From Vicinamibacterales bacterium (GTDB taxonomy: Bacteria; Acidobacteriota; Vicinamibacteria; Vicinamibacterales; UBA2999), in the NCBI GenBank assembly GCA_965262505.1, contig CBDHFM010000030.1, positions 1,803,244 through 1,867,243 on the forward strand: a stretch of 64,000 nucleotides of DNA, given 5' to 3'. The position numbers and the translations under genes are program-made. This document shows, piece by piece, positions 4,058-64,000 of the stretch. Below the pieces are notes generated by a model. That model was not told the DNA's origin and ran no database searches. It saw only the letters and a list, made by a program, of their open reading frames with translations. Within the stretch, counting starts at the first letter, position 1. Each line of letters begins with the position of its first letter.

Positions 4058-4207
4058 GAGGCGGTTTCAGCACCTCGTCGCGGGTGGCCGCGGACGGGGC
4101 CGCCCCGTTCGCGCCGCAGGCGCCTCTCCCGTGAGGGTGCTTGTGGAGCCGAGCACGAATGGGGCTGTCCGCGGTCAGGACCCGCCTGGAGGTCATGAAA
4201 TCGGCTC
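4058..4207. mobile_element. 150-bp MITE with IS630-like ends
   Basis: TA-GAGGCGGTTTCA ... TGAAATCGGCTC-TA imperfect terminal inverted repeats with TA on both sides; right end GGTCATGAAATCGGCTCTA resembles the IS630 end GGTCATGAAAAGCGCTTTA. Confidence 0.6.
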
Positions 4208-4209
4208 TA

Positions 4210-5233: not shown

Positions 5234-5295
5234 TAGCGCCGGTGCCGCTGAACCGGAAGCGGCGCCGGATCGGTGGGCACGGCGGGCCGGCCGGG
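5233..5295 (-). pseudogene. Diverged duplicate of the last ~20 codons of the nuclease/PLC gene at 5848..6735
   Basis: Reads GRPAVPTDPAPLPVQRHRR* versus GRPAVPSDPPPLPVQRRRR* at 5848-5910. Confidence 0.65.
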
Positions 5296-11018: not shown

Positions 11019-11862
11019 AGATCGCCCTGAGCGGCTCCATCTGACTCTGATCGGCCTCGCCGACCCGCATCGGCGTGACTGACGTGTAGCCATTCTCGAT
11101 CGCCCAGATGTCGGTGCCCTCGGGCTGCGGCGCATTACGTTCCTCGAAGACGCTCCAGTACACAGTGCGGCCCGCAGGATGCTGCATCTCCGCGAAGCTT
11201 TGCTCGCCGCCGCGAACCATCGCCTGCGTGGTGATCGTGTAGCCCTTGTAGCCGCCGGCCGGAACGGCGCCGGGCACGTTCACGTTCAGGAACGTGTTCG
11301 GCGCCAGGCCGTATTGCTTCACCCGCCGTGCGACGCCAAACACCTCTTCGGCGGCGAACACGAGATCGGCGGCGGTGGCCGAAGCCGGCAACGACGCGGC
11401 AATCGCCGGCACGCCGTGGAACGCGGCCTCGCGGGCGGCGCCCACCGTTCCCGACAGGTACGCCGACAGGCCGAGGTTGTGTCCGCGGTTGATGCCCGCA
11501 ACGACGAGGTCCGGGCGAGGCACGACGATATTCCGGAGGGCGATGTTGATCGTACTGGCCGGCGTCGCCGTCAGGCCGATCGCCTCGAGACCGTTGGAGA
11601 GCGTGAGGTCCTGACGAAATACCGCCTCGGACATGACGATCGAATGCCCTTTCCCGCTCTGAGGCCCGGAGGGCGCCACGATGATCGGCGTGCCGATGGC
11701 CTGCAGAATCTGCGCAAGAGCGGCGATGCCTGGCGTGCGCACGCCGTCGTCGTTCGTCACGAGAATCCGATACGGCGGAGGCTGACTGAACTGCTGCGCG
11801 GCTGCCGGCGCAAGCAGACAGACGGCCAGCAGCAGGGCGAGCAGGACGCGGCACTTGTGCAT
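11011..11862 (-). CDS. surE: SurE-family 5'/3'-nucleotidase with an N-terminal signal peptide
   Basis: [29 protein letters not shown] and [10 protein letters not shown] motifs, preceded by a hydrophobic leader ending AAAQ. Confidence 0.85.
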
Positions 11863-20535: not shown

Positions 20536-23175
20536 GTGGCTAGCATCCCTTCGCGAATCGGGAACTTCGAGGTCCTCAGCCAGATCGGGTCTGGGGGGAT
20601 GGGCGCGGTCTATCTCGGCCGCGATCCGGAGTTAGGCCGCCAGGTAGCGATCAAGGTGATTCGCGAGGAGGTCCGAGACCAGGAAGTTCTTGAGCGGTTC
20701 TTCCGCGAGGCTCGAGCGGCCGCCGCGCTGCGTCACCCGAACATCATCACCGTCTACGCCAGCGGCCAGCACGAGCACCAGCCGTACATGGTCATGGAGT
20801 ACGTCGAGGGCGATTCGCTGGGGGACATCATCCGGACGCGGCGGACCCTGACCCTGGCCGACAAGATCTCGTACATCGAACAGATCTGCGCCGGCCTCCA
20901 CTTCGCCCATCGCGCGGGGATCGTCCACCGGGACGTCAAACCGGCCAACATCATGGTCGATCAGGAAGGCGTTGTTCGGATTCTCGACTTCGGCATCGCC
21001 CGCGTCGAAGGGTCCGCGATGACGCAGGACGGCTCATTGATGGGATCGCTGAACTACATGTCCCCGGAGCAGATGCTCGGACACCCGATCGATCATCGGA
21101 GCGATATTTTTTCGGTTGGCTCGGTGGCCTACGAGTTGCTGTGCTACCAGCAGGCGTTCAAGGGGGGGCTCACTGACGGACTCCTGCAGCGGCTGCCGCA
21201 CGAGGACCCGCCCCTATTGGCCCAGCTCTATCCCGGGTTGCCGCCCGCGCTCGATCGGGCCGTCATGCGGGCCCTGGAGAAGGAGCCGGACAAGCGGTTT
21301 CAGGATTTGGCGGAAATGCGCAGCGCGATCGTCGGTGGCGGCGCTGGCGGGCACGCCGATCCGCAGCCTGAGGATGACCGCACTATGGTGATTCCGCGGC
21401 CGGGAGCACCGCAACCTGAGCAGGCCATCAACCTCGTCACCGGCCCGGAGCGATTCGCCCAGACAACGGCCGCGCCTGCGCCGCACCTTCCTGCTCCCGA
21501 CCCGACTTCTGCCCCTGCTCTTACTCCCGCGCCGCCCCCGCAGGCGCTGCAACTGAAGAAGGAGGCCGCAGGCAGCGGGAGACCTCTCTCGGGCGGCGAG
21601 AAACCCGCCGCCCCGTCCGTGCCGCCGCGCGCGGCCGTCGTCGGGCCGCCGCCACCGCAGACAGCGCCGCGCGCGTCTTCTCGGAAACGGACCATGGTTA
21701 TTGGCTCCGCTGTGGGCGCCCTGGTTCTCGTCGCGGCAATCGCAATCATTGGGCGGCCTCCGCCGCCGAGCGATCTGGAACGGGAGCGCCCTGGAATCGA
21801 GGAGACCATGGGACGTTTTCGGGTCGCCTATCGGAACCGGAACCTGGAGGGCGTGATGGGCGTGTTTCCGACGCTGCCGGGCGAGACCAGGCAGGCGATG
21901 CAGCGCTCGTTCGACGACTGTCTCGTCTACGAAGTGACGTTCGCCGATATGCAGGTGGAGTTGGATCCGACCGACGCCACACTAAAGCGCTTTTCAAATA
22001 GGCCTTGTACTACCTGGGGCGGTCGTGGTACTTCTGCGCGCACCGATGCAGGAGGCCCGATGCGTGCCTATTCGATGGATCTGCGAGAGCGGGCGCTCCT
22101 CGACAGCGATGCCGGGATGACGGCGGCCGAGGTGGCGGCGAAGTACCGCGTGAGCGGGTCGTGGGTGCGGCTACTGAAACAGCGGCGGCGCGACACGGGC
22201 GAGGTGGCGCCTCGCGTCCAGCGACATGGACGGCGCGGCATGCTTGAGCCGCACCTACACACCTTGGCCGCGCTGATTGCGGCGCACCCGGATCGCACGC
22301 TGGCTGAGCTGAAGGACGCCCTCGCCACGCCCGCGAGTGTGCCGACGGTCTGGCGCGCCGTGCGGGCCCTCGGCCTGACCGTTAAAAAACACGGTCCGCC
22401 CGTCCGAACACGATCGGCCTGACGTCGCGGCCGCGCGGGTCGCGTGGCACGCGGCGGCGCCGACCTGGGATGTCGCCCACCTCGTGTTTCTGGACGAAAC
22501 CGGCATCACCACCAATCTGCTTCGGCGGTACGGCCGGGCACCGCGCGGCGCGCGCGTCCACGACCACGCCCCCTGCGGGCGCTGGCAGACCAGCACGTTT
22601 CTCGCCGCGTTGCGGGTCACGGGGCTGACCGCACCGGGGGTCTTCGACGGCGCGATCGATGGCGAGAGCTTCCGCGCCTACATCGAACAGATCCTGGTGC
22701 CGACCCTGCAGCCCGGCGACATCGTCATTGCCGACAATCTCGGGGCCCACAAGGTCGCCGGCATCCAACGCGCCATCCAGGCCGCCGGGGCCACCCTCTG
22801 GTACTTGCCACCCTACAGCCCGGACCTCAATCCCATCGAGCTCTGCTTCGCGAAGCTCAAGGCCCTCGTTCGCACCGCTCGCTGTCGCAGCACCGAGACG
22901 CTCTGGCCGTTCCTCGGCGAGTGCTTGGCGCACTTCAGCCCTGACGAATGCCGCAACTATGTTCGGCACTGCGGGTACGCGGCCGCCACACGGTCATGAA
23001 AAGCGCTTTAGCCCAGGTCGATGTCAGCAGCACGCATATCTGCACGCCGAACTCCGGAGGCCTACAAATCACGACCGCTCAGCGCGACGTCTTTACCCTG
23101 CGCAGGAGCGGCGACGGCTGGCTCATCGACAGCAGCGTCCAGGCGCCCGACGCGTCAGCCGACCGGACGCAGTAG
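20536..23175 (+). pseudogene. Membrane Ser/Thr protein kinase interrupted by IS630 copy 2 in its extracytoplasmic domain
   Basis: GSGGMGAVY, VAIK, HRDVKPAN, DFG and YMSPE motifs, Pro-rich linker, TM helix; removing 21985..23010 restores DPTDATL-AQVDVSS...RTQ* in frame. Confidence 0.9.
21985..23008 (+). mobile_element. IS630-family element, copy 2 (1024 bp)
   Basis: Same TIRs and TA duplication in CTAG; orfA 22060..22422, orfB to 22999. Confidence 0.95.
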
Positions 23176-36071: not shown

Positions 36072-36254
36072 AGGCTCCTGCTTTGCTCGTGAAGGTTTCG
36101 GAGGCTCGTCTGAGCCAACGTTCAACCCAAGTGAGCCGCGAGGTCGCGTGTTGTGCATGCCTCTGTTGCGAGGAAGCCTGAAGCGCGACTGACAACAGCG
36201 GCTCCACCTGCTTTGCAGGTTCACTCGACCTCCCCACACGGCAAAGCGGGGCTG
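36072..36254 (+). ncRNA. ssrS: 6S RNA
   Basis: About 180 nt directly after zapA (known synteny); ends pair (GCTCCTGCTTTGC / GCAAAGCGGGGC) into a long rod; own promoter. Confidence 0.85.
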
Positions 36255-36304
36255 TTCCTCCCCGCCTTGCGCCGAGTCCGGTGCGAGCCGCACGAAGTTC
36301 ATTC

Positions 36305-37318: not shown

Positions 37319-38082
37319 TACGACCAGTTCTCTCGCGATCGCTCTGGCGCAAACTGACCGTGGTGGCCGTCGCCGTCATCGGCTTCGTGCTGCTGTACGA
37401 GGTCAGTACGTTCGACTCGCGTGAAGCGGCACCGACGCAGCTGGTGAACCCCGCGCCGGTCGCGGGCAGCCGTCTCCTCTTCACGGCAACCGCGTACTGC
37501 AAGGGAACGACAACGGCCTCAGGCGTCCGCGTCCGCAGCGGAATCGCCGCCGCCGACCCGGCGATTCTGCCGCTCGGCAGTGTCGTCAGCATCACCACCG
37601 AGGACCCGAAGTACCAGGGTGTCTACACCATCATGGACACCGGCCCTGCCGTGCAGCGGCGCGTCGTGGATCTCTATATGTGGAGCTGTTACGAAGCGCT
37701 GGAGTTCGGACGGCAACAGATTGAGTTGACCGTGCTTCGCCTCGGCTGGGGCCCGGAGGCGAGCGCGCCGAGCCTCATCGATCGCCTGTTCCAGCGCCGT
37801 GAGGCGGCACGCGAGGCGGCGCCGCCTTCCCCACCCCCGGACGCCACGGGGGCGGCGGAAGCCCCCGAACCGCTGGAACCGGAAGAACCCGAGGACCCAC
37901 AGGAGCCCACCGGACCCGTGGAACCTGTGGAGGTCGCGGACCCCGTGGAACCTGCGGCAGTCGCTGAACCCGCAAGACCGCAGACTGATCCCACTCCAGT
38001 CGACGGCGGCGACGGCGAGGGCGAGGTGACGGTCCAGCCTGAAGCGGAGCCGGTCGCGGCCGAAGGCACACCCGTTCCCTAG
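37315..38082 (+). CDS. 3D-domain protein with Pro/Glu-rich tail
   Basis: N-terminal TM, then TATAYC, TASG, IAAADP..LPLGS and DTG.AV..VVDLYM. Confidence 0.85.
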   Translation: MIRPVLSRSLWRKLTVVAVAVIGFVLLYEVSTFDSREAAPTQLVNPAPVAGSRLLFTATAYCKGTTTASGVRVRSGIAAADPAILPLGSVVSITTEDPKYQGVYTIMDTGPAVQRRVVDLYMWSCYEALEFGRQQIELTVLRLGWGPEASAPSLIDRLFQRREAAREAAPPSPPPDATGAAEAPEPLEPEEPEDPQEPTGPVEPVEVADPVEPAAVAEPARPQTDPTPVDGGDGEGEVTVQPEAEPVAAEGTPVP

Positions 38083-49357: not shown

Positions 49358-49711
49358 GGGGGCGAAATTGGCTTCGACGGGGGTACTGAAGCGTGGGATG
49401 CATGCCGAGCTCCATTGACTCGTTAAACCGATGGAACATCCGTTAACTGCGGATACTCAGTACGCTCTCGCTGCTTAATAAGCAGTGAGCGTCTGCCCTG
49501 ACCTCGCCTGGTGGTTGGGGGCCAGATGTCATTAAGCAGGCTGGCGGTCAGGTGGCGGCTCGGCGCCTGGCCGTGAGATACACCGGGTCTGGTGCCCGGC
49601 GGTTTTCGCCGCTTCCTTGCGCCGGGGACGAGAACTTGAAAGCGGACACGCATGTAGAGTCCTGCGGGGACGTACTTTCGGACGCGGGTTCGACTCCCGC
49701 CGCCTCCACCA
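49358..49711 (+). ncRNA. ssrA: tmRNA; tag (A)ADTQYALAA
   Basis: GGGGGCG...TTCGAC 5' end, tag ORF 49449..49478 ending ALAA-TAA-TAA, T-arm GGTTCGACTCC and CGCCTCCACCA 3' end. Confidence 0.97.
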
Positions 49712-49722
49712 CCTAACTCGTT

Positions 49723-50844
49723 CTACCCGTTCGTCTTCGCGATTCCTCCTCCGCCCGTCTCCAGCATATCTCCACGCCCCCATGCGGGCGTGGCCTGATC
49801 CAGCAACCGAATCGCCCCGTCAATCGCCGCTGGACTCAGGTGCATGTACCGCTGCGTCGTCGACAGGTCCTGGTGCCCAGCCAGTTCCTGAATGGCCCTC
49901 ACGGGGGCGCCTCGCATCGCCAGATGCGAGCAGAAGGTATGTCGCAGGATGTGTACCCCCGGCCGGACATTCGCTCTCCGAGCCGCCCGTGCCACCGCCT
50001 GCTGCACCACCTTCTGGGTCAGCGGGGTCCCACCACACTGGGTGAGCACCCGCCTGCCACGCAGATGTCGGTGCTCCACGAGTACCCGCTCGAGCCGCCG
50101 CGTCAGGGGCACGTAGCGGACCCTCTCCCCCTTGGTGGCGGTCACCTGACCCTTCCAGTCTGACCGAGCCACGCACAGCCGCCGCTGGTCGAGATCCATG
50201 TCTCGCCACTCCAGCGCCATCATCTCCCCGCACCGCAGACCGGCTTCCCCACCCAGCAGCACGAGCAGGAGGGTCGTCCGGTCGAGACGCTCGGCGGCCG
50301 CGATCAGTCGCTCGAACGCCTCGAAGTCGTGAAACTGCGCCTCCGCGCGCGGCGTCTTGAGCAACCGAATCGTGCACGGCACGGTCTCAATGACGTGCCA
50401 CGCCACGGCCTGCTTCAGGAGCGTGTTGAGCACCGTCAGGACGTTGTTGACGGTCTTCGGCGACCGGTTCTCGAGGGCTCGCTTGAGCCGCTGGACGTCC
50501 TCGGTCGTAATGGCGTCCAGGTGCCTAGCCCCGAGCGCCGGCACCAGGTGCACCCGCAGGATCGTCTCCTTCCCCGCGATGCCACTGGGCTTTTGCCGGT
50601 TCGCCCGTGCGTAGCCCTCCAGGAACCGTGGTGCGAAGTCTCTGAGTGTCGGCACCTCCTTCCTAACACGCGCGGGCCCATTGCGCAGCAATTCACGCTC
50701 ACGGGCCTCGCCCCACCGCCGAGCCCCCGTCAGAGAGGACACGGTGGCCTTCTTCCGTTCACGAAACCGGATCCCGTCCGGCAGGAGGACAGCGATGTCC
50801 ACCTCCCAGCCGCCCCGGCGGTATCTGCGCACCTTCACGCTCAT
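49723..50844 (-). CDS. Tyrosine recombinase / phage-type integrase
   Basis: AGLRCGE (R), HILRHTF (HxxR), LAGH and TTQRY (catalytic Y). Confidence 0.95.
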
Positions 50845-50850
50845 CGCCAG

Positions 50851-51051
50851 CTACTCCCCCGGCGATGGCACGCGCTTCTGGTCGAGCCAGTCTACCAAGT
50901 CTTGACGGCAGACGAGGACCCGCCGACCGATTCGGACGACGCCTGGGATCTGGCCGCGAGCGACCATCGCATAGACGGCCGGCCGCGACGTCCGGAGCAG
51001 CTCTGCTACCTCATTGGCGGTCAGGAATTCCGCCACCACTGCTTGCATCAC
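50851..51051 (-). CDS. Excisionase-like helix-turn-helix protein
   Basis: FLTANEVAELLRTSRPAVY...IP..RIGRRVLV...L..WL directly upstream of the integrase. Confidence 0.88.
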   Translation of the reverse strand: MMQAVVAEFLTANEVAELLRTSRPAVYAMVARGQIPGVVRIGRRVLVCRQDLVDWLDQKRVPSPGE

Positions 51052-51238
51052 TGGCCTTCCTCCTCGTTACACGGGGTCAATGTCGCCTCTCCACGAACGC
51101 CCGGCTGGCGTCTGAGGCCGCCAGGGCGATCGCCAGTATCGGCATTGATCCGCGGGGCAAAGAAGATGGGGAACGAGGGGAAAAGACGCGGGGGAACGCA
51201 GGGACCGCGCGCATCGACCCGCATGGGCGTGAATGTGG

Positions 51239-51922
51239 CTAGCTTTGAGGGCGATTCTTGCGGTACTGCTTCTCCCTCAGCACGCGACGAATGTTCCGAT
51301 CACCTGCCTTCGTTCTCCGATGATCATTCCGCTGCCACCGTTGGAACTCCGAGGGGCCCTCGTAGCCTGCCGCACGCCAAATATCCTGCTTGAGGAACCG
51401 TTCCCCCTTCACCGCCTGGGCTGCAGTCAGAAAGGCCTCCACGGCCTGTGCCTTCTGTTTAGGAGTGGCGTGCTCGGGAAGCTCGTCCGCCTGTGCGGGT
51501 ACACGGTTTGCCACGGCGTCTTCCGGGCCGCTGGCCACTCGGGCTTCGGCCAGCGTACGCCGCTCCCCCAAGTGCTGCAGCCACTCCGGTGACTGCTTGA
51601 GACCTACAAAGGCCGCCTCCACCAATGATCTGCTCGACCAGTCGGGACATAACTCCAAGTCTACGTAGACGCGAAGCCGCCTCCAGAACTCCTCGACCGT
51701 CCCGGCGAGCTCCGCGACCGGCCATTCTCCAGCACGCACCGCCTCACAGGTTGCCTGCGCACAGGCTAATGCCACCGTGTGGACGTAACGAGTGATAGCC
51801 CGTTGCACGTCGCACTGGGCGGAAGACATCTCACCGCGACACTCGAACTCCGCAGCAGCGTCAGCCGCCACCACACGGTCAAGGAACGGCTTCGGGAAGT
51901 AATCCGGGAACGTCAGGGCCAT
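51239..51922 (-). CDS. Hypothetical protein with basic, possibly DNA-binding C-terminus
   Basis: ORF 51239..51994, likely ATG 51922 (MALTFPDYFP); co-oriented with xis-int; ends IWRAAGY...FQRWQR...IRRVL. Confidence 0.5.
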   Translation of the reverse strand: MALTFPDYFPKPFLDRVVAADAAAEFECRGEMSSAQCDVQRAITRYVHTVALACAQATCEAVRAGEWPVAELAGTVEEFWRRLRVYVDLELCPDWSSRSLVEAAFVGLKQSPEWLQHLGERRTLAEARVASGPEDAVANRVPAQADELPEHATPKQKAQAVEAFLTAAQAVKGERFLKQDIWRAAGYEGPSEFQRWQRNDHRRTKAGDRNIRRVLREKQYRKNRPQS

Positions 51923-52534
51923 CGCTTCTCGGGACTCCTCAGAGCGGCCTGGCCGCAACCTCGGTAGCGTCGCTCGCCAGGAACACATTCCCAATGCACA
52001 TGGTCCACTCTGGCTGTCGCCTACTCACCACCTGTACAACGCGCTTTTCAAAAGGCCGTTGAACGCGACCTGATGTACGCCGTCAGGGACCTCAGCAAAA
52101 ATGCCCAGCATGGCGTTCTTCTGGGTGTGGCGCGGGTCCGGGGCATGCGGGACATCGTATCCACCTTTCGGAAGATGTCCACCAAACCGGATCAAGCCCA
52201 GATCGCCAAAGCTGTTGAGAATGCACTGAGTCTGGGACCGGATAAATGCGCCCTGTCACGTTTGTGATCTGTCACCTTTCTCCGGCCGGCGCCGCAGGCC
52301 ATCCGGCCAGCTCGCATGAAAGCGGCCGGCGGCGTCCCTGGGCTGCGACTTGGCCGTCTCGGGTGCCGGTCGCGCGCAGCCTGCGACGGGAGATCACGGT
52401 CGGGCCAGACTCCTACGGCTCGGTATCCAGATTCGTCCCTGCCAGGATACTGTTCTCAGCCTGCAAATGTTTGATAATGCAGCTGCGCGCTCTTGAACGA
52501 ATGAAAAGCTGCAATTAGAGGCGGCTCAAAGTAC

Positions 52535-53739
52535 CGACGTCCCCCCCGAATTGAGTAGCACCCGGGTTTAGAGTCCGAGCTCACGAGAAGGGAGATCGGA
52601 CGTGAAGCAACGATTCAGCGAGGCGCAGATCATCGGGTTCCTGCGGGAGTCCGAAGCGGGCCTGCCGGTGAAGGACCTGTGCCGCCGGCACGGGTTCTCG
52701 GAGGCCAGTTACTACCTCTGGCGGAATAAGTTCGGCGGGATGACCGTCTCGGACGCGAAACGCCTGAAGGAGCTGATTGCCGAGAATACGCGGCTGAAGA
52801 AGCTGCTGGCCGAGTCCGTGCTGGACAACGAGGTGACGCGCGATGCGTTGCGAAAAAAGTGGTGACCGCCCCAGCCCGACGGGTGCTGGTGCGGGATATG
52901 ACCGCGCAGGGGGTGAGCGAGCGGCGCGCGCTCGCGCTGGTGCACATGAGTGCCTCGTCGCTGCGATACACCCCGGCGCCGGATACTAACGCGGCGTTGC
53001 GAGCCCGCATCGTGACCTTAGCGCACCGGCACCGTCGCTACGGTGCCGGGATGATCTACCTCAAGCTGCGGCAGGCGGGAACACGGGTCAACCACAAGCG
53101 GGTGGAGCGCCTGTATACCGAGGCTAGGCTGCAGGTACGTCGGCGGCGACGCAAGAAGATCCCGGTGGCGGACCGCCAGCCCCTGGTACGCCCCCAGGCG
53201 CCGAACGAGGTCTGGTCTGCCGACTTCGTCTTCGACCGCACGGCCGAGGGACGGGTGGTGAAGTGCCTGACCGTCGTCGATGACGCGACCACCGAAGCGG
53301 TGGCCATCGTGCCGGCCCGCGCGTTCGGTGGGCTGCCGGTCACCCGCGTGCTCGATCAACTCGCGCTCAAGCGCGGCCTGCCGCGTATCTTGCGCACCGA
53401 CAACGGGAAGGAGTTCTGCGGGCGCGCCATGCTGACATGGGCCCATACGCACGGCGTCACGTTGCGCCTGATCGAGCCGGGCAAGCCGAATCAGAACGCC
53501 TATATCGAATCGTTCAACGGCCGGTTCCGCGACGAGTGCCTCAACGAGCACTGGTTCACGAGTCTGGTCCATACCCAGGTCCTCGTCGAGGCCTGGCGAC
53601 GCGAGTACAACGAGGAGCGGCCGAAGAAGGGACTGGGCGGGCTCACGCCCGCCCAGTACGCCAAGCGGCTGGTCGCGGAACGCAGTACAGTCACCGCCGG
53701 ACTCTAAACCGAAGTGCTACTGAAGACGGGGGGACGTCG
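52535..53739 (+). mobile_element. IS3-family (IS407-group-like) element
   Basis: GTAC duplication (52531-34, 53740-43), TIR CGACGTCCCCCC..AGTAGCAC, orfA 52602..52865 and orfB to 53707 joined at an AAAAAAG site; WSADF, TDNG and [11 protein letters not shown]. Confidence 0.93.
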
Positions 53740-53750
53740 GTACCACTCTC

Positions 53751-54283
53751 ATGACAGAGATCGATCTACGGAACGACAACCGGAATCCGGGCATCCCGCT
53801 GGACCCGCTCGTCGTCGGCCAAGATATCTATCGTCTGCTGGCGATCTTTGGCGCTAGTAGTGAAATTGCCGCTCGACGCAGCGGTGAGGACGACGTGGGC
53901 TCGGTCTATGGGTACAGCATTCGCGCGTTCGAGCTGTCGGAAGTGGGTCGGCTCCTGGTGTCGCTGGCGGCGTGTTGCCGGAACGACTGGGACCACAGGT
54001 CGGAATCGATAGACGACACGCTGGTTGCCTGCGCGGAGTCGTCCGAGGTCGGCGTGCTGTTCAAGGATGTTAGGAGTGGAGAGGAGACGCAGCTGCATGT
54101 ACGCGAATCCTGGCACAAGATTCTCCACTGCGACACGATGAACTTCGACCGGAGCGAGGGGCCATCGATCTACTCAGGGCACCTCGAACCTTTCGTCCAC
54201 CTATACGGGAAGTACCAGGGAAGAACTGGAAAGCCAGGGTCGATATCTACCGCTGGTGCCAAGCCGTTCATGTGTTGACCTGA
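53751..54283 (+). CDS. Orphan protein with HEPN-like R...H motif; probable 1-bp deletion near 54219
   Basis: RESWHKILH; adding one base after TAC CAG GG gives the C-terminus KNWKARVDIYRWCQAVHVLT* (stop 54283). Confidence 0.5.
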
Positions 54284-54434
54284 CGTAGGAATGCCTACCG
54301 TGGACGATGTCCTTCCAGTCCTCTCAGGCCGCTAAAGGCCGACTTCCGGCTTCGCGGTGAGACGCCGGGCTCTGAACGGCCGCCAGACAAGAGCAGGCTG
54401 GCGGCAAGTCCCTATGCAGCAGGCCGCGTGATTT

Positions 54435-55127
54435 TCAGAGTAGCGGTCGAACCGTAGCTTCGATCTTGCCAATGCCCGCTCGCGCCTGCTTGAGAAGCCC
54501 GAATGCCGATACTCCAATGCCGGCAAACTGAAAGTCTACCCAGGTGATACGCTCAACCTTGATTGAAGAATGCGGAACAGGCAATTGCGTCCTTGGGTCC
54601 ACTGGTACACCCATAACCGACACACCGTCCCCGAAGGTGACGCCCGAGCCCCAACTGACCTGACCCCCACCCTGACCAGTAACTTTCGTTTGCTGACTCT
54701 CGGCCCGAGTCTGTTCGACCAAATCGCAATGCTTGTTCTCGTTGTTCACTTGGTTGAATTGACCAAGCCACTCCTGACCAGATTGGAAGGGCTGGACCTC
54801 TTCGAGCGCGGTAACAACTGCCGGTGCTGATTTCTGGAGTCCTGGAAACCATCGGTCGATCCGAGCGTCAAAGGTCTTCTTGTTGGGAAGAATCGGAAAG
54901 TAGAAGCGGTCAGAACTCGACGCCTTCTGGCAGTAGCGATCTCGAATGTCGGCAGCCAAGTAGTCCAGGACGGATCGAAGATTCTCACAGGCGTTCTTGA
55001 GATCGACCCTGAGTTCTGGATCGATTGCCTGCGAATACAGTGACTTCTTGTAATCAGCTTCGATCTTGCCCACTTGGTCATCAATCTTGGCAAGAAGGGC
55101 TCGAATGTTGGCTTGGCGTGAACGCAT
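54435..55127 (-). CDS. Orphan HEPN-like protein
   Basis: 230 aa, low GC; NLRSVLDYLA and NNENKH motifs; SD GGAG before ATG 55127. Confidence 0.55.
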   Translation of the reverse strand: MRSRQANIRALLAKIDDQVGKIEADYKKSLYSQAIDPELRVDLKNACENLRSVLDYLAADIRDRYCQKASSSDRFYFPILPNKKTFDARIDRWFPGLQKSAPAVVTALEEVQPFQSGQEWLGQFNQVNNENKHCDLVEQTRAESQQTKVTGQGGGQVSWGSGVTFGDGVSVMGVPVDPRTQLPVPHSSIKVERITWVDFQFAGIGVSAFGLLKQARAGIGKIEATVRPLL

Positions 55128-55147
55128 GAAGGCTCCGGTTGTTGTCT

Positions 55148-55217
55148 GACTAACGCCCAAGCATCACCAGTGGTGCTTCACGATCGCCGCACGCCGCCTG
55201 CTGCATGCCGTGTTCCC
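55148..55217 (-). other. attC-like (integron cassette) recombination site
   Basis: Minus strand AAC-acg-GCATGCAGCAG...CTGGTGATGC-ttgggc-GTTAGTC: paired arms with one extrahelical base; GTT core 20 nt upstream of an ATG. Confidence 0.5.
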
Positions 55218-55409
55218 GAAGAAACACTTTAATGTTGTAAACTGGAATTTCCGTTTTGCCTGCCCCGGATGGCCCCTTTTATCCATCATCGTTGTTGTGA
55301 ACGAACGAAAGAACAACGGAGACTCAAACAGCGTAGCTAAACCGTCCACCGAATCGGATCAGGCCCAAAGACCCCTTCCGGCCAGCGCCGCCGTGTCGAC
55401 GAGCAGGTC

Positions 55410-56399
55410 TCAGCGTGCATTTCCAGGACGTGCTCGAGAACGGTCGGATACGCTTCGATTACCGATCGCTCCCTGTGCGAGCGGGTCCCCGTGTTCGAGC
55501 GGAGCGTGTGCTATCGAGCGGGTCCCCGTGTTCGCGTTCGGCCCCGCAATGGCGTTCACCTGTTCGCACTCGGCCGAGAACGGCCAGCCGCAGTAGCGTG
55601 CCCCGCGACCTATCTTGTAGGCGAGTTGCGCGTGAAACTGCTCGCGGGCGGTGAAGGTGTCCGACAAGTTGCCCAAGGCCACCATGACTGCGTCCTGAGC
55701 CAGGACATGCTTAAAGCCCATCGCGTGCCCGAACTCGTGGACGAAGACGTGTTTTAGGTAGGCGATTGCATCAGGTCCCCGGCGCTTCATACAGTTATGG
55801 TTGAGAAAGATGGTGTTAGGGTCAGTGCCTACCCGAGTGAAGCCGCAGCTGCTATGTCCATCCGCGTCCGTAAAGTACCTCACGGTGATCCATCCCAACC
55901 GTTCGACGACGTGCTCGGTCCCTGATTCAATGCGGCCGCTGTAGCGTTGCCCTGTGAGTTGCTCGGCGGCGGATGGGATCGCTTCTCGTATGATGTCGCG
56001 GTGTTCATCCGGAATGACCTGGTGTCCGAAGCCTGTATAAATGTAGACGTTCGGGCTTGTGGTGTTCAGCACCTGGATGACTTGATGGTCGAGCGTAAAC
56101 GGCTGATCCTTCTGACCGAAAACAAATTCTTGCCAGAACGCATCATCGAAGCGTGAATCAATAGATGGATCATCCGGCGTCTGCTGTTCGACCGTGACCA
56201 CGATTGATCTCGCGCAGTTCTCGGTATGAGGGGGGGCTGTGCTTTCACGCACGCACGGGAAGTATTCATGGTTAATAATTAGGGACCGACAGGCTTTAGC
56301 CACCCACCGCGCCCATTCAAAATAGTATCCAACGTTGTCGTGGTGTTGCAGCGCGTTGATCCGTCGCCTCGTCTCCCGAAGGGACATCGAACGCTTCAT
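55410..56399 (-). CDS. Metzincin-type zinc metalloprotease
   Basis: HEFGHAMGFKH (HExxHxxGxxH) followed by the AVM Met-turn; the N-terminus looks atypical and the start is uncertain. Confidence 0.7.
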   Translation of the reverse strand: MKRSMSLRETRRRINALQHHDNVGYYFEWARWVAKACRSLIINHEYFPCVRESTAPPHTENCARSIVVTVEQQTPDDPSIDSRFDDAFWQEFVFGQKDQPFTLDHQVIQVLNTTSPNVYIYTGFGHQVIPDEHRDIIREAIPSAAEQLTGQRYSGRIESGTEHVVERLGWITVRYFTDADGHSSCGFTRVGTDPNTIFLNHNCMKRRGPDAIAYLKHVFVHEFGHAMGFKHVLAQDAVMVALGNLSDTFTAREQFHAQLAYKIGRGARYCGWPFSAECEQVNAIAGPNANTGTRSIAHAPLEHGDPLAQGAIGNRSVSDRSRARPGNAR

Positions 56400-56512
56400 C
56401 GGCCATCAACCTCTAATAACGAGTGATGAGGAGTAGAAACGGCTACGCTTATTTAACAGAAGGTGCATATAACCGAGGTCAATTTAAAATATTGACGTGA
56501 TGCAACCATTAA

Positions 56513-59500
56513 CCCGGGATTTCAGTTTTGCCCGCCCAAGATGGACCGCTTATACATCCGAAAGCCGCAGCGCCCACGAGAATCTTCTTCATCGCACATC
56601 GTCCAGGCTCTGAGGCCGTCACTCAGCCCGCGCTGACGTGCAGCGGGCTGGAGATCCGTGCTTCCAGGGCATTCCGTAGACACCGCTTCTCGCTTGTGTC
56701 CTCGCGTTGCCAAGCCGGCGTCCTTGCACTCGCCGCGCGTCAACCTGCCGGCACCGGTAGTGCCCAGATCCTCTGAAGCATCGCCCCGAACAGGTGTCGG
56801 GTCAAGTGACTCTCCGCCAGCAGCAGCCAGTAATAGCGCGCGTGTTTCACCAGCCGGCCACCCGTCTTGACAAGGCGCTGCTGGAGACTGGTCAGCGACC
56901 AGGTGTCGATCCGCTTCGGGAGCACCAGCCGCCGCCAGAGGTTCCCGAGGTTATAGGCCAGTACGCTCAGTTGCAAGCGGACCTCGTTCGCCCGGAACCG
57001 ATGACACGACAGGCGCGTCCAATGCGCGGCCTGCTTGCCTTCCTTGATCCATTGCTCCGCCGTCCCGCGCTTATTGTAAAACCGCACGACGGCACGATGC
57101 TGGAGCGGGAGATTCGTGACGATGACGCCGACGCGCGGGAACAGCTCGCCGACGTGGTGCTCGACTTTTGCCACGACCCGTCGGGGCGTGGTTCCCGCGC
57201 CCCACGATTTCTTTGGACAGCCTTCTGCGAGAAGGAGAATGAGTTATGTCCAAGGGAAAACAGCACGAGGCTGAGGCCTCGGAGGGAGCCCGGAGGGCGA
57301 CCGCAGAGGCCTCAGCCTCGTGGGCGCTCGTCGGCACGGGGCGGTGGTCCGCGCGACGAAAAGTCTCCGTGGTCATCGAGGTCCTCAAGGGGGAATCACT
57401 CGAGAGCCTCAGTCGTCGCCATGGCGTGACGGCGGCGAAGCTCTCGCAGTGGCGTGACGACTTCGTGGCCGGCGGTGAGGCCCGCCTCAAGCATCGCGAG
57501 GTCGCCGTCGAGGGCGCGGACACGCGGCGGCTCAAGCGCGTCGTGGCGGATCTCGCCACCGACAAGGCGTTGCTGGCCGAGAAGATTCGACACCTGGAGG
57601 CCGGCCGCCCTTTGGGCTGGTGGAGGTCGAAGCGATGCGTCACGCGACTTCGCCCTCCACCCACCGGCCGTACGGCATCGCCCGCGTCACGCGCGTGTGG
57701 CAGGTGCCGCGCTCGACGGTCTACGCGCAACGGACCCGGCGCGCCCGGCCGACGCCGGTGGCCAAGCGCGGACCCAAGCCGCCCCAGTCGGATGCGGCGC
57801 TGACGGCCGCGGTCCGGGCCGTGATCGCCGCGAGTCCGTTCCACGGCGAAGGGCACCGCAAGATCTGGGCGCGCTTGCGGGTGCAGGGGCTGCGCACGTC
57901 GAAACGTCGGACGTTGGTCGTGATGCGCGCTGCCGACTTGCTCGGCCCTGCGCGGCTGCCCACGCCGGTCGCCGCCCGTCCCCACGACGGCACCATCGTC
58001 ACCGCCAGTCCCAACGTGATGTGGGGCACCGATGCGACGGCCACCGTGACGCTGGCGGACGGCCACGTCACGATCGTCGGGGCGATCGATCACTGCACGG
58101 CCGAATGTGTGGGACTACACGCGGCGAAGTCCGGCACGCGCTTCGAGGCGTTGGAGCCGGTGCGCCAGGGCGTCCGAGATCACTTCGGGACGATGGCCGC
58201 CGGCGTGGCGAGCGGGCTCACGATGCGCCACGACCACGGCAGTCAGTACATGAGCAACGACTTTCACGCCGAGCTCCGGTTCCTCGGCATCGTGTCATCA
58301 CCGGCCTTCGTCCGCCAGCCCGAGGGGAACGGCTGCATCGAACGGTTCTTCCGCACCCTCAAGGAACAGCTGCTGTGGGTGCGCCACTTTACGGATGTCG
58401 AGGACTTGCAGCAGGCGCTGCGCACCTTCAAGGAGACCTATAACCAGCAGTGGTTGATCGAGCGACTCGGCTTCCGCGCACCCGCCGTCGTCCGTCGCGC
58501 GGTTGCGCTCACCACGGCCGCGTGAATACACTCACCCGGCTGTCCAAAAAATCCGTGGCGGTACACGTCGGGGCGTGGTCCAGCTGTCCGCCTGATAGCG
58601 GACACTCTTGTACCGGACCAATGGCGTGTGGCTTGGCCGTCCCGCCGGACGAAACAGGATGTCTTCGATCTCTCGCTCCAAGCTCTTGTTCGCGGGTATC
58701 CGGATCGCGTACTGGACGCCGCGTGCCTCCAGCGCCTCGTAGATCGCCGGCCGCGCGAAGGCGGCGTCGGCGCGGAAGGCCACGCGTTTGCCCTGCGCCT
58801 GCTGCCGTTCAATCTCCGGCACCAGCAGCTCGTCCCAGTCGTCCGCGCTGGAGACGTTGCCCGGTCGTAGCTTGGCCGCCAGGCAGTCCCCGTCGTCATT
58901 GAACAGAAACAGCGGGTGATAGCAGACCGTCTCGAAGTGCCCGTTGTAGGCACTGCCTTCCTGCTGCCCATGCACCGGGCTCTCGCTGGAGTCCATGTCG
59001 AGCACGACACGATCGGCGTGGGCGAACGTCTCAGCCTGTCCGACCAGGTCGCGATTCACGGCCATCAACCCGACGAGGTTCTCTTCACGGGTCAGCAGCT
59101 CGGTCTCGAACCAATGGAGCGTGGAGGTTAGGGCCGCACTCCGGTCCCACCGCGTCGGCGATCCGATCAGACGAAACGTCGGATCGGTCGAGAGACGCTG
59201 CGCGTCGTTGAGGTCTTCGTAGCCCGCCAAGCGGCTGTACACCGACTGCCGCAGGAGATCGGGTAACCGGAACTGTGTGTGCAATCCGTGGCGGGAGTCG
59301 CGCAGGTACGCGGCGATGAGCCCCGCAAGGCCAAGACGTTACATCCAACTCACGCACCAGAATCAAGCCGGCGTCGGAGGTGATGCGCGACCCCTGAAAC
59401 GCGACCTTCAGAAATCCGTTGAACGTGCACTGAAAGGGCGCGGTTTGTAATTCACCCACTGGGTGTCACCCTCCGTGGCCTGGTTTCTCTCGAGAAACCC

Positions 59501-59565
59501 GCGAAAATCAAGGCGTGACGACTGATCGCATGGGCAAAAGTACCACAGCCAATCGGAAATCCGGG
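56513..59565 (-). mobile_element. IS1380-family element, inactivated by a +1 frameshift (~59341) and a nested IS
   Basis: Ends CCCGG(G)ATTTC; transposase pieces ITSDAGLILVRELD, YEDLND, VLDMDSS, RADAAF and YNKRGTAEQWIKEGK; the frame rejoins as ADSWTTPR-RVVAK. Confidence 0.88.
57193..58565 (+). mobile_element. IS3-like element nested in IS1380
   Basis: orfA from 57246 (HTH) and orfB to 58525 (WGTDAT, DHGSQY, GCIERFFRTLKE); subterminal IR TTTGGACAGCC; flanked by 14-bp direct repeat CGTCGGGGCGTGGT. Confidence 0.85.
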
Positions 59566-59720
59566 TTTATACACCCGAAGGCCGTAGCGCCCACGGGAAT
59601 CTTCTTCATCGCACAATCGTCCAGGTTCTGAGGCCGTCACTCAGCCCGCGCTGACGTCTTGTGGGCTGAATCCCGGGCTTCCAGGGCATTCCTTCGACAC
59701 CGCTCCTCACCTGTGTCTCC
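59566..59720 (-). mobile_element. Remnant 3' end of a second, diverged IS1380 copy
   Basis: Aligns with about 56548-56700 (TTATACA.CCGAA.GCCG.AGCGCCCACG.GAATCTTCTTCATCGCACA...). Confidence 0.75.
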
Positions 59721-59783
59721 CGCCCTTCTCGTCTTCGACGTGGCGATGTGACATTGTGGTTGTCCTCGGAAGCGATCCGCCTA

Positions 59784-60807
59784 AAGCGCTTTTCATGACC
59801 GTGTGGCGGCCGCGTACCCGCAGTGCCGAACATAGTTGCGGCATTCGTCAGGGCTGAAGTGCGCCAAGCACTCGCCGAGGAACGGCCAGAGCGTCTCGGT
59901 GCTGCGACAGCGAGCGGTGCGAACGAGGGCCTTGAGCTTCGCGAAGCAGAGCTCGATGGGATTGAGGTCCGGGCTGTAGGGTGGCAAGTACCAGAGGGTG
60001 GCCCCGGCGGCCTGGATGGCGCGTTGGATGCCGGCGACCTTGTGGGCCCCGAGATTGTCGGCAATGACGATGTCGCCGGGCTGCAGGGTCGGCACCAGGA
60101 TCTGTTCGATGTAGGCGCGGAAGCTCTCGCCATCGATCGCGCCGTCGAAGACCCCCGGTGCGGTCAGCCCCGTGACCCGCAACGCGGCGAGCAACGTGCT
60201 GGTCTGCCAGCGCCCGCAGGGGGCGTGGTCGTGGACGCGCGCGCCGCGCGGTGCCCGGCCGTACCGCCGAAGCAGATTGGTGGTGATGCCGGTTTCGTCC
60301 AGAAACACGAGGTGGGCGACATCCCAGGTCGGCGCCGCCGCGTGCCACGCGACCCGCGCGGCCGCGACGTCAGGCCGATCGTGTTCGGACGGGCGGACCG
60401 TGTTTTTTAACGGTCAGGCCGAGGGCCCGCACGGCGCGCCAGACCGTCGGCACACTCGCGGGCGTGGCGAGGGCGTCCTTCAGCTCAGCCAGCGTGCGAT
60501 CCGGGTGCGCCGCAATCAGCGCGGCCAAGGTGTGTAGGTGCGGCTCAAGCATGCAGCGCCGTCCATGTCGCTGGACGCGAGGCGCCACCTCGCCCGTGTC
60601 GCGCCGCCGCTGTTTCAGTAGCCGCACCCACGACCCGCTCACGCGGTACTTCGCCGCCACCTCGGCCGCCGTCATCCCGGCATCGCTGTCGAGGAGCGCC
60701 CGCTCTCGCAGATCCATCGAATAGGCACGCATCGGGCCTCCTGCATCGGTGCGCGCAGAAGTACCACGACCGCCCCAGGTAGTACAAGGCCTATTTGAAA
60801 AGCGCTT
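59784..60807 (-). mobile_element. IS630-family element, copy 3 (1024 bp)
   Basis: Same TIRs and TA duplication in CTAG; differs from the other copies by only a few substitutions (e.g. RRCML, STLL). Confidence 0.95.
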
Positions 60808-61325
60808 TAGTTGACCGTGCTCACAGGTGTTAATCGAAGAGTCACTTCCGAGCGGCCCGACGCGCCTTCGCGGCAGCAATCTTCGGCGCGTTCTTATCCC
60901 GTCGGGCCAGCGTGCCGTTGAGGATCTCGATCACCTTCTGGTGCTCCGCGATCTCTCCCAGCTCCGTGAGTAAGCCAAAGTGCTTCGTGAAAGATAGCGG
61001 ACCAGAGGCACTTCGGAAGTGGCGCACCAGATTCGCACAGCAGCCTTCTGACGGTGTTTGGGTTCAGACTAAAGGGGACCCACTGAGGCGGTGAAATCAT
61101 AGAGAGCCTTGGCCACACGGGGAGGAGACCCTCAGCTGGAATCGTGCAACAGGAAACGGCGGGACGGCGTTAGACCCTTCTCTGTGGTGGAGATTGGGAC
61201 TGGACGAAGCGCACGCTGGCTGCGGCAGGCGGTGACCCGGTGCGGGCGCTCCGGCTCTATTGGCAAAGCGCAGCGCTGGGTAGTCTACGGATTGATCTTC
61301 GCGCGCGTGCGGTGCCACGTGACAC

Positions 61326-63595
61326 TCACGCCATCGGCAACGGGCTCAGGAGGTTCCGGTTGATCAGCCCTCGGAAATGGCTCGACACGCTCGCGGCCAG
61401 TGCGCGGTCACGGACCAGGAGCCCCATCTCGATGTTCCGGTCGAGCGCGGCCTCGGTGAGGTTGGCGGACGTCACGAACACGGCCTCGTCGTCGACCACG
61501 ACGGCTTTGGCGTGCAAGACGCCAGACGGTCCATCGGCCTCGAGGGACCTGGGATCGTAGTACACGGCTGGCCTTGAGGTTCCCGGCCAGTCTGTGCCCC
61601 AAAAGCGGTCGGCGAATCGCCGCACGAGTGCACTCGGCGCACTGGTGTCGCCCCGGCGGCGCTGGATGTTCAGCAAGAGCGTGACGTGCAGGGTTGGCGT
61701 CGTGTCCATTCTGTTCGCCAGCACCTCGAACGCGCGCGGGCCGTCGAAGTAGGCGTAGCTGGACGCCAGCACCGCGTGCATGGCCGATCCGAGCAGTTCC
61801 TCGTACACGCGACGCGTGTCGCGGGCGTGGACCCCGGGCACCTCCGGCCCGGACCAGACCAGGTCCGGTCGCGGCGTGCGACCAACGGCCTCCTCGACGG
61901 TACGGATCCACGCCGCGCAGGCCGCTCCAGACATCCCCATGCGCCTCAATGCCGTCAAGGCCGCGATCACGTCCTCGCCGCCCACGCGTACACCCAGCAC
62001 GGCCTGGAGGGACGCCAGGGTGGCCGGCACGGTCAGGATGCCAGCATCGAGCGCATCGGCAAGCCGCCGACGCAGATGGGCCGGCAGGGCCCCTAACAGC
62101 CCGTGGTGAAAGTCGATCCATTACAAGTTGATGAAGGTCGAGGGGGTCGACAAGGTCGATCCCGTGTACTACACTGTCGCGCATGGCGATGGGTATTCGA
62201 GAGCGCGAGCAATCGTTGTTGTGGGTCGCGGCCGCGGAACTGCCGAAGTCGCCCGGCCATCCGTTCTACATGCGGCTGAATGCGCTGCTCGACGCGCACG
62301 ACTTCGATCCGTTTGTCGAAGGCCTGTGCCGCGGGTTCTACGCGCAGGTCATGGGCCGACCGAGCTTGGCGCCTGGCCGGTATTTTCGGCTGCTACTGGT
62401 GGGCTACTTCGAGGGCATCGATTCGGAACGAGGGATCGCGTGGCGCGCGACCGACTCGTTGGCGGTGCGCAGCTTTCTGCGGCTCGGCCTGGAGGACGCC
62501 CCGCCCGATCATTCGACGATCTCGCGGACGCGGCGCCTGATCGATGTCGAGACGCACCGCGCCATCTTCACGTGGGTGCAACAACGACTCGTCGAGGCGG
62601 GATTGCTCAAGGGGAAGACCGTGGCGATCGATGCCACCACGCTCGAGGCGAACGCCGCGATGCGCAGCATCGTGCGGCGCGACACCGGCGAGAGCTATCA
62701 GGCGTTTCTGACCGGGCTCGCCACGGCCTCGGGGATCGAGACCCCGACGCGCGAGGACCTGGCACGGGTGGACAAGAAGCGCAAGAAGAAGACGTCGAAC
62801 ACGGAGTGGACCAACCCGCACGACCCCGATGCGAAGGTCACGAAGATGAAAGACGGCCGGACGCATCTGGCCCACAAAGCCGAGCATGCGGTCGACCTGG
62901 ACACCGGCGCCATTGTCGCCGTCACGCTGCAGGGCGCCGACCAAGGCGACACGACGACGATCGTCGAAACGGTGACGGCCGCGGCCGAGCAAGTCGAAGA
63001 CGCGCAGCGGGACGGCGAGGCGCCACAGGCACTGGACGAACTGGTCGGCGACAAGGGGTATCACAGCAACCAGACGATGGTGGACCTCGACGCGGTCGGT
63101 ATCCGGTCGTACATCGCCGAGCCGGACCGAGGCCGCCGCGACTGGTCGGAGGCGCCGGACGCGCAGGCGCCGGTCTATGGCAATCGCCGCCGGATGCATG
63201 GACGACGCGGACGGCGCCTGATGCGGCGACGCGGTGAGACGATCGAACGCTCGTTCGCGCACCTCTATGACACGGGGGGCATGCGCCGTACGCATCTGCG
63301 CGGCCACACGAACATCCTGAAGCGCGTGCTGATTCATGCTGGTGGCTTCAATCTCGGACTCGTCATGCGTCAGCTGATCGGCGCCGGCACGCCGCGTGGG
63401 CTGCAGGGCCGTCTGGCGGCCGTTCTCGCCACGTTGTTGATGTTCATGAGCGCTGCCCAACGACGATTCGCGATGATCACGGCATCGCATCGACTCTTCG
63501 CGGCCATTGGTGGTCGACGCACGCCACAGATCACGTTCGTCGTCAACTCGTCAGCAACAGCGACTTTCGCCACGGGCTGCTAAGGCCTCCGTCAT
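61326..63595 (-). pseudogene. drmC: DISARM phospholipase D DrmC, split after codon 4-5 by an IS
   Basis: LVWSGP, HAKAVVVD (HKD) and TSANLT..A...NIEMG; removing the IS gives MTEALGALPAHL..., 783 nt in frame; ATG overlaps the drmB stop (ATGA). Confidence 0.88.
62097..63579 (+). mobile_element. IS5/IS1182-like element (DUF772 + DDE transposase)
   Basis: 19-bp TIR CAGCCCGTGG(T/C)GAAAGTCG, CTAA duplication (62093-96, 63580-83); transposase 62183..63583 with PDHSTISR, IDAT, GDKGY and IERSFAH. Confidence 0.92.
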
Positions 63596-64000
63596 GCGAC
63601 CGCCCCAAAAAAGGCCGCGCCGGTGACGCCCACGACCGGCACGACGAGGGCACGGTCGAGATAGTCGTTGCGCATCTCGCAGGAGGTCTCCGCCACCAAC
63701 GCACAGCCATGACAGGCCGCCCCGTGGAGCCACCGCTTCTCCAGACTCGTGCCCGGGCTGTGATGGGCGCAGATCGGATCGTTGGAGCACAGCCCTCCCA
63801 TCCGCATCGCTAGGCGCAGATGCGCTTCGATGTGCCGCGCCTCCTGCACCAACCCCCCCAGGGTCCCCTCCGCGTCCGGACTCCCGGTGTAGAGGAGGAT
63901 GCCGAAGCGCTCCGCCGGCGTATCCGCGTAGATGCGCTCCCGGAGGGAGCTCGCCGGATAGCCGCAGCGCATCGCCAGCGACTGGATAAGCAGGTGTGAA
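63592..64000 (-). CDS. drmB: DISARM DrmB (DUF1998 domain), 3' part only
   Basis: HLLIQSL, GILLYTGSPDAEGTLGGL, CSNDPIC, ACHGC..VAETSCE..N.YLDR Cys cluster; directly upstream of drmC. Confidence 0.9.
   Translation of the reverse strand, partial: SHLLIQSLAMRCGYPASSLRERIYADTPAERFGILLYTGSPDAEGTLGGLVQEARHIEAHLRLAMRMGGLCSNDPICAHHSPGTSLEKRWLHGAACHGCALVAETSCEMRNDYLDRALVVPVVGVTGAAFFGAVA

Follow-up and report, generated by a model that had tools for sequence, protein, structure and literature searches.

A probable integrative genomic island with class 1 DISARM in the 3' end of ssrA of an uncultured acidobacterium

What occupies the DNA directly behind ssrA, the transfer-messenger RNA (tmRNA) gene, in a Vicinamibacterales bacterium, and does it form one mobile unit? 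The region under study comprises positions 49712-64000 (14289 bp) of a 64,000-nt stretch of contig CBDHFM010000030.1 (assembly GCA_965262505.1), which we call the window. An original prediction, made from the letters of this DNA, had read the region as an ssrA-integrated island with the defence system DISARM among its cargo. The comparisons described here indicate with high confidence that 49712-64000 is the part nearest the integrase of an integrative genomic island, variable among strains, that resides in the ssrA 3' end and carries class 1 DISARM. The kind is already known, namely a t(m)RNA-integrated island with a known defence system, and the example comes from a poorly studied phylum. 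Protein families were sought in the open reading frames (ORFs) of the window with Pfam, PHROGs, PADLOC and NCBIfam, and RNA genes were called by ARAGORN and by Rfam at the gathering threshold.

The insertion is defined by three metagenome contigs of the same species in which the site is empty. The protein encoded just upstream of ssrA led to the first of them (L088), and a protein encoded downstream of ssrA in L088 led to the other two, L190 (374 kb) and L191 (904 kb). L088, L190 and L191 are 99.955%, 99.928% and 99.990% identical to the window, respectively, and collinear with it as far as base 49711, where the tmRNA gene ends. Past the tmRNA end all three continue with TCCCTCACTTCGC..., followed by a gene for a 302-aa (amino acid) protein, a Lactamase_B gene (metallo-beta-lactamase fold) and a DUF6152 gene; the stretches TCCCTCACTTCGCTCGG and TCCCTCACTTCGCTCGGTCTGG belong to this empty-site flank. 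Neither int nor xis follows ssrA in these contigs. Because the same-species contigs agree with the window as far as the tmRNA gene reaches and then run into unrelated core genes, everything from 49712 on has been inserted, at a point that can be placed exactly, directly after the last tmRNA base. The tmRNA gene was kept intact at the junction and is the same as in the empty-site strains through its final base. A 92%-identical relative (L089) departs from the window at the same base, with yet other genes there. The 302-aa protein of the empty-site flank is recorded also on the window's own contig of 5,416,930 bp, and therefore the core flank is present in the same genome somewhere past the island. 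Synteny beyond ssrA, by which the original prediction proposed to judge the island, is not conserved in L088, L190 and L191, and the prediction of an island integrated at ssrA is supported by the exact break at 49711 together with the intact int and xis genes at the junction.

The inserted DNA opens with three genes from 49723 on, encoding a tyrosine integrase, an excisionase-type protein (Xis) and a hypothetical protein of 227 aa (Table 1), just as had been proposed for a module abutting the tmRNA 3' end. The integrase gene is convergent to ssrA, with its stop codon 12 nt from the tmRNA CCA end, and its translation shows the catalytic motifs R, HxxR and Y. Three features by which t(m)RNA islands are recognised were thus found at this locus: a tyrosine recombinase gene at the tmRNA 3' end, an empty attB in close relatives and a xis gene. 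The 227-aa protein has no match in Pfam, PADLOC, NCBIfam, PHROGs or the PDB. Its exact sequence is present in the protein collection, in a cluster of six members, and the gene is also found in the sibling islands described below.

The integrase has relatives with the same habit. We examined the best 80 of 302 metagenomic relatives (80 at 59-71% identity); in most of these loci a xis homologue lies directly upstream of int. Where the contig extends past the int stop, a convergent tmRNA gene (17 loci) or tRNA gene (~30 loci) is found 15-40 nt off, the tRNA targets being Asp, Ser, Met, Leu and Ala. On the cargo side of 16 such islands, 124 ORFs include DruE, DrmD/DrmA, PDC-S68, type I, II and IIG restriction-modification, AbiEii, Mrr and a TOTE-type primase, and no phage structural family is among the top 25 Pfam families of this cargo. 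The integrase thus comes from a family of int-xis modules that target t(m)RNA genes and carry cargo of great variety, with defence genes frequently among it. The 227-aa ORF and the other genes of the island studied here are absent from all 80 integrase-related loci. Scans of viral contigs with the integrase and the 230-aa, 227-aa and 175-aa ORFs returned nothing useful, and tblastn against plasmids gave weak partial matches only.

The island was also found in another setting. Four metagenome contigs, namely ctg814759 (L171), ctg812084 (L172), ctg564054 and a 15.6-kb contig (L174), carry sibling islands with 97.7-99.97% identity to the window. The identity of ctg814759 and ctg812084 with the window opens exactly at 49685, that is with the last 27 nt of ssrA; to the left of these 27 nt the two contigs hold AT-rich sequence unrelated to tmRNA, then a MazE-like gene and insertion sequence (IS) elements. 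The attachment (att) core is at most 27 nt long, because sibling identity begins at 49685 and the empty-site contigs diverge after 49711. We take these 27 nt to be the T-loop, the 3' T-stem and the acceptor 3' strand of the tRNA-like domain of the tmRNA. The sibling copies of the core belong to a tandem array or occupy a secondary site. From the core through DISARM and beyond, the block is collinear in the two left-flank contexts, the window on one side and ctg814759 and ctg812084 on the other, and so the part from the core through DISARM behaves now as one unit. A degenerate copy of the core, CGGGCGCGACGCCCGCCGCCGCCACCC, with 22 of 27 matches, is found in the strains with the empty site, where it starts 72 nt past the tmRNA end (L088:11193-11219, also in L190 and L191); an earlier island could have left it as a scar, or it could be due to chance.

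Table 1 Features of the ssrA junction and of the inserted region, in window positions.
Feature	Position	Strand	Basis
ssrA (tmRNA), tag ADTQYALAA, integration target	49358-49711	+	ARAGORN; Rfam RF00023 190.9 bits, model positions 1-374/374
att core, <=27 nt, CGGGTTCGACTCCCGCCGCCTCCACCA, attL side	49685-49711	+	start of identity in L171/L172; empty-site divergence after 49711
Tyrosine integrase, 373 aa, intact	49723-50844	-	PF00589 1.7e-28; Phage_int_SAM_3 (N-terminal SAM-like domain); phrog_1
Xis (excisionase / AlpA-type HTH), 65-66 aa	50851-51051	-	HTH_17 1.5e-15; TIGR01764 'excise' 43.4 bits vs cutoff 28.8
Hypothetical protein, 227 aa	51239-51922	-	start is second Met of a 251-aa ORF
IS3-family no. 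1, orfA 52602-52865, orfB 52859-53707	52536-53739	+	HTH_Tnp_1, rve, rve_3; NF033516 226 bits; terminal inverted repeats
175-aa ORF	53751-54278	+	no family or PDB match
230-aa ORF (first called 241 aa)	54435-55127	-	large uncharacterised family; weak phrog_13652 match
329-aa ORF, zinc metalloprotease catalytic domain (HEFGHAMGFKH)	55410-56399	-	weak Peptidase_M10 match
IS1380-family, transposase split 56740-57174 / 58532-59284	56701-59566	-	NF033539 on both fragments (profile positions 44-289 and 297-418)
IS3-family no. 2, nested in IS1380 element	57193-58565	+	rve / NF033516 on 57620-58525
IS630-family	59784-60807	-	DDE_3; NF033545
drmC (DISARM PLD-domain gene), codons 6-260, severed from start codon	61326-62096	-	ORF 61326-62030: PADLOC DrmC 254 bits; NF038319 DISARM_DrmC_I 167 vs cutoff 133
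IS1182/IS5-like, transposase 62183-63583, in drmC	62097-63579	+	DUF772 + DDE_Tnp_1; NF033551 185 bits, below cutoff; inverted repeats
drmC start and first five codons (MTEAL)	63580-63595	-	sequence read
drmB (DUF1998/MZB), last 135 codons, runs off window	63592-64000	-	MZB 2.6e-9; PADLOC DrmB 134 bits; NF038324 186 bits

The main recognisable cargo is DISARM. The original prediction of DISARM was right as to the system, which is class 1; only two of the five to six genes lie inside the region, drmB being cut by the window end and drmC interrupted by an IS element. Past 64000 the island was followed on the sibling contigs, and the window's own contig is known by its recorded proteins. The end of drmB in the window is identical to the C-terminus of the 597-aa DrmB of the siblings, and this exact protein is recorded on the window's own contig. 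Past the window the siblings continue, in this order, with drmB (597 aa), drmA (1126 aa), gmrSD (605 aa; L181:10001-11818), drmMI (1339 aa) and drmD (1104 aa), the operon being read towards the integrase. PADLOC scores in the siblings are 1012 bits for DrmD, 1253 bits for DrmMI and 907 bits for DrmA; all five DISARM proteins score far above PADLOC noise, and DrmC is above the NCBIfam cutoff of the class I equivalog. The GmrSD-family protein has the Pfam domains GmrSD_N and GmrSD_C and matches the PADLOC families 'Orf5' (330 bits) and mREase_IV (253 bits). Exact DrmB, DrmA, GmrSD and DrmD, and DrmMI at >=90% identity, are recorded on the window's own contig. As judged from these matches, the class 1 gene set is complete (the core genes drmA, for a helicase, drmB and drmC plus drmD, of SNF2 type, and drmMI, for an N6-adenine methylase), with an embedded type IV-like enzyme in addition.

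In the window drmC is split after codon 5 by the 1483-bp IS1182/IS5-like element, which is flanked by a 4-bp target duplication (CTAA, at 62093-62096 and 63580-63583). The drmB stop and the drmC start overlap in ATGA at 63595-63592, as they do in a relative (L008) and in the sibling islands. When the element and one duplicate were removed in silico, a 260-aa DrmC without a single mismatch to the sibling DrmC was obtained, and the insertion is therefore very recent. The element is absent from drmC in the siblings L171-L173. L174 has a different IS in its drmC, at window position 61677, which carries Y2_Tnp and IS110-type genes, so that drmC is independently broken in two of the five island variants. 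The gene has been reported to be dispensable for protection in both DISARM classes (PMC9142583; bioRxiv 10.1101/2021.12.28.474362), and for this reason the IS-split DISARM of the window may still defend.

Relatives of the system were examined through the best 80 DrmB relatives (74-89% identity), which span Gemmatimonadota, Acidobacteriota, Proteobacteria, Planctomycetota, Chloroflexota, Myxococcota and others. None of the other island genes was found near any of the 80, and DISARM itself moves independently. A general linkage of DISARM to tRNA or tmRNA genes was considered and rejected, as a tRNA gene lies within 10 kb in only 5 of the 80 loci. In many class 1 relatives drmA directly follows drmMI. 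At least ten relatives have a gap of 1-4 kb between drmMI and drmA that holds another gene (among them L021, L063, L004, L033, L076, L061, L075 and L060). The gap genes encode GmrSD (twice, plus the sibling island), an AAA_21 ATPase, a Macro-domain protein, DUF5131, AAA_14-DUF4143, a ResIII/DEAD helicase and a reverse transcriptase with a trypsin-like domain. The gap has the look of an accessory slot whose content can be exchanged within the operon.

Beyond DISARM, one sibling sequence (L184:5778-9885) encodes a kinase-like fragment of 116 aa, which matches PADLOC PD-T4-6 at its N-terminus (2e-22). The other products of this stretch are an NfeD-Band_7 pair, a protein of 236 aa that matches GmrSD_C weakly and a Sel1/TPR-repeat protein of 509 aa. 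The window's own contig has exact copies of the 63-aa and 73-aa neighbours of these distal cargo genes on record. In L184 the distal cargo is bracketed by two pairs of direct repeats, at 633-715 and 10740-10822 (83 nt, 97.6% identity) and at 2762-2976 and 11008-11219 (~217 nt, 86%), and could mark another nested element.

IS elements, which the original prediction does not mention, make up 6577 of the 14289 bp (46%): two of the IS3 family, an IS1380, an IS630 and the IS1182-like element in drmC. Their limits were set by terminal repeats and by sibling copies of the island that are without single elements. The first IS3 element is missing, exactly from end to end, in the siblings L172 and L174, which are also without the IS630 element. 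The outer limits of the IS1380 element were placed from flanking repeats: a direct repeat of 151 nt, ~88% identical between its copies at 56550-56700 and 59567-59717, brackets the IS1380::IS3 composite, and both copies are present in all sibling islands. This repeat exceeds the length expected of a target duplication; it could be what is left of a second IS copy, or else a small repeat element. A copy of the nested second IS3 element, 98.5% identical, occurs in L088. The IS630 element is present three times within the 64 kb, with further copies at 4200-5236 and 21981-23011 (99.5-99.8% identical). The IS1182-like element that interrupts drmC in the window sits within int in L172 (ctg812084), at window-relative 50608-50615. 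Exact transposases of the IS630 and IS1182-like elements were found on many contigs, and both elements appear to be currently active in the population. The sibling island variants differ only by IS insertions.

Between the first IS3 element and the IS1380 composite lies a block of low GC content (53740-56549, 56.4% GC compared to 66.4% in the flanking core) with three ORFs. The prediction of several low-GC orphans holds insofar as the block has three ORFs; it does not hold for the 329-aa ORF, a metalloprotease fragment, nor for the 230-aa ORF, which belongs to a family of 535 homologues. All three occur in each of the sibling islands and are therefore older than the recent IS activity. PADLOC gave zero families at E <= 0.01 for these three ORFs and the 227-aa ORF, and PDB sequence searches with the unassigned ORFs were empty.

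The exact 175-aa sequence occurs on seven contigs, in a cluster of 56 members at >=90% identity, and no relatives outside these 56 sequences were detected; Pfam, PADLOC, NCBIfam, PHROGs and the PDB gave no match. A structure model from the single sequence was poor, with a predicted local distance difference test (pLDDT) score of 32. The idea that this ORF is the 3' half of a gene split by the first IS3 element was rejected, as no reading frame crosses the junction after in-silico excision of the element. The similarity of the 329-aa ORF to three longer proteins of 418-597 aa (P0122-P0124) is confined to its residues 44-279 and to their C-terminal HEFGH metalloprotease domain (82-89% identity). 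The three read as CARDB-like-repeat proteins, and P0123 and the more distant P0126 are predicted to start with a lipoprotein-type signal. The ORF is thus a gene fragment without the N-terminal 160-360 residues.

The homologues of the 230-aa protein are ~230 aa each, and none of the 535 has a Pfam domain or an informative name. Its gene lies on a recurring segment of 0.82-0.89 kb (54330-55214) that is found at 93.5-97.7% nucleotide identity in three unrelated contigs, where its neighbours include many IS elements, toxin-antitoxin pairs, type I restriction-modification and Cas3, none of them constant. A confident AlphaFold model (pLDDT 93), built from a 45-sequence alignment, shows a helical bundle at the N-terminus, a sheet in the C-terminal part and a terminal helix. 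A Foldseek search with this model gave no match in the PDB (best E 0.24) and one unnamed viral protein in BFVD (E 1e-7), and a distant homologue is encoded near the recombinase of Bacillus phage PK1. Two candidate identities were tried and dropped. A HEPN protein was rejected because Foldseek matches to HEPN toxins were insignificant (probability <=0.23) and the putative Rx6H motif lacks a conserved Arg, and an IS or integron cassette because the homology limits vary by context and a 17-nt inverted repeat is found in only two of the four copies. It is rather doubtful, though conceivable, that either the 230-aa protein represents a new single-gene defence or addiction function or the drmMI-drmA gap is a dedicated docking slot for an exchangeable second defence gene. 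If the latter were true, DISARM operons would carry a second, exchangeable defence gene.

Several observations weigh against reading the region as part of one integrated island. In the sibling contigs, the 27-nt core beside int is not joined to ssrA. A second core copy, as expected for a distal att, was not found in the window with up to 3 mismatches, and no convincing distal att was found in ~39 kb of sibling island followed along ctg814759 with up to 5-6 mismatches; the size and unity of the island are for this reason unproven. As for the cargo, the recognisable defence genes are DISARM and GmrSD only, and the Band_7/NfeD, GSDH and Sel1-repeat proteins of the siblings are not among them. Finally, the broken drmC in two of five variants fits decay as well as tolerance.

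The alternative that survives best is a composite: IS events or tandem integration would have joined a small int-xis element at ssrA to a DISARM module that had been acquired separately, and to the low-GC block. DISARM relatives without this integrase occur in many phyla, and the operon of L008 has its own adjacent integrase. An IS cluster at 56.7-60.8 kb lies between the int-proximal genes and DISARM, the segment with the 230-aa gene recurs independently elsewhere, and the core copy detached from ssrA in the siblings suggests tandem arrays. Against these points stand the collinearity of the core-through-DISARM block in two flank contexts and the lack of an internal att copy between the parts in the window or in the sibling sequence. 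We regard a composite origin as plausible, if distinctly the less favoured history, and it would not contradict the presence of an ssrA-integrated island today.

Less probable is an integrative conjugative or mobilisable element with its transfer genes further out. The island is large, with no end within ~39 kb in the siblings, and int-xis modules are typical of such elements. However, neither the window nor the lists of genes and Pfam families of the sibling extension show a relaxase, type IV coupling protein, type IV secretion system or replication family, and we consider this reading improbable. The original prediction had likewise seen no phage structural, replication or conjugation genes in the region, and Pfam, PHROGs, PADLOC and NCBIfam gave none in its sizeable ORFs.

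Presence and absence alone give no direction, and the block could in principle be ancestral and have been lost by deletion in the strains with the empty site, with the degenerate 27-mer as a scar. Yet the breakpoint falls exactly at the tmRNA 3' end with the integrase gene 12 nt off, the 92%-identical L089 departs there too with different genes, and the same block is found in another flank context. A precise excision would, moreover, itself be the action of the island. A loss by deletion is accordingly very unlikely. A degraded prophage, with structural genes past the window or lost, has least to commend it and is hardly credible: integrase and excisionase match PHROG integration and excision families and the 230-aa family has its homologue near the phage PK1 recombinase and one viral structural match, but no capsid, tail, terminase, portal or lysis family is found in the window ORFs, in the Pfam listings that cover ~25 kb of the siblings past the window, or among the top 25 cargo families of the 16 related islands.

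An integrative island in ssrA would have formed through integrase-mediated recombination between an attP core and the 3' end of ssrA, a reaction that would regenerate the tmRNA gene, and Xis would direct excision. DISARM would work as published for the Serratia and Bacillus systems: DrmMI would mark the host DNA, DrmAB would load on unmarked invading DNA and DrmD would assist. The embedded GmrSD-type enzyme may add restriction of modified (phage) DNA, and the loss of drmC would be tolerated. The low-GC ORFs are probably hitch-hiking cargo, one gene fragment and two unknowns, and not partners of DISARM.

Two RNA calls in the core region upstream of ssrA lie outside this argument. A 6S RNA is found at 36072-36255 (RF00013, 72 bits). 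ARAGORN called a 90-nt tRNA-Arg(gcg) at 37788-37877 on the minus strand; Rfam at its gathering threshold gives only a tRNA-Val at 28650, and the tRNA-Arg call may be spurious or atypical.

The island is real but ordinary, a decaying defence island, and the presence of DISARM on an ssrA island is not in itself surprising. Its value is that of a clean natural case of defence systems moving and decaying in an uncultured soil or sediment acidobacterium, with an exact insertion point and empty sites. Near-identical variants of the island differ only by IS insertions, and the two with an independently broken drmC fit the published dispensability of this gene. Two modest leads emerge, the widespread uncharacterised 230-aa family and the variable accessory slot between drmMI and drmA in class 1 DISARM.

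The islands CP4-57 and VPI-1 are integrated at ssrA. So are the Dehalococcoides vcr islands (PMC3146451). Like other islands that tyrosine integrases have placed at ssrA or tRNA genes, the island described here has its int adjacent and convergent to the tmRNA 3' end, a regenerated target, a short identity block, a presence/absence polymorphism among strains and variable cargo. It differs from the known ones in its uncultured acidobacterial host, its class 1 DISARM cargo, its extreme IS load (46%) and a distal att not seen in the window or siblings. Its DISARM resembles the class 1 system of Serratia sp. SCBI (bioRxiv 10.1101/2021.12.28.474362; PMC9142583) in the order drmD-drmMI-...-drmA-drmB-drmC and in the overlap of the drmB stop with the drmC start. 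Unlike the Serratia system, it has a GmrSD-family gene between drmMI and drmA and, in the window, a drmC interrupted by an IS element, and no drmMII was seen. BREX loci can embed BrxU, a GmrSD type IV restriction enzyme presumably directed against phages with modified DNA. The similarity lies in a GmrSD-type enzyme inside a methylation-based defence operon, which here is DISARM and not BREX and is known from sibling-contig genes only. Pipolins differ from the island in that it has neither PolB nor another replication module and uses a different integrase family; they share with it the principle that an integrative element, flanked by t(m)RNA-derived repeats (presumably so in the present island), carries exchangeable defence systems (PMC11551731).

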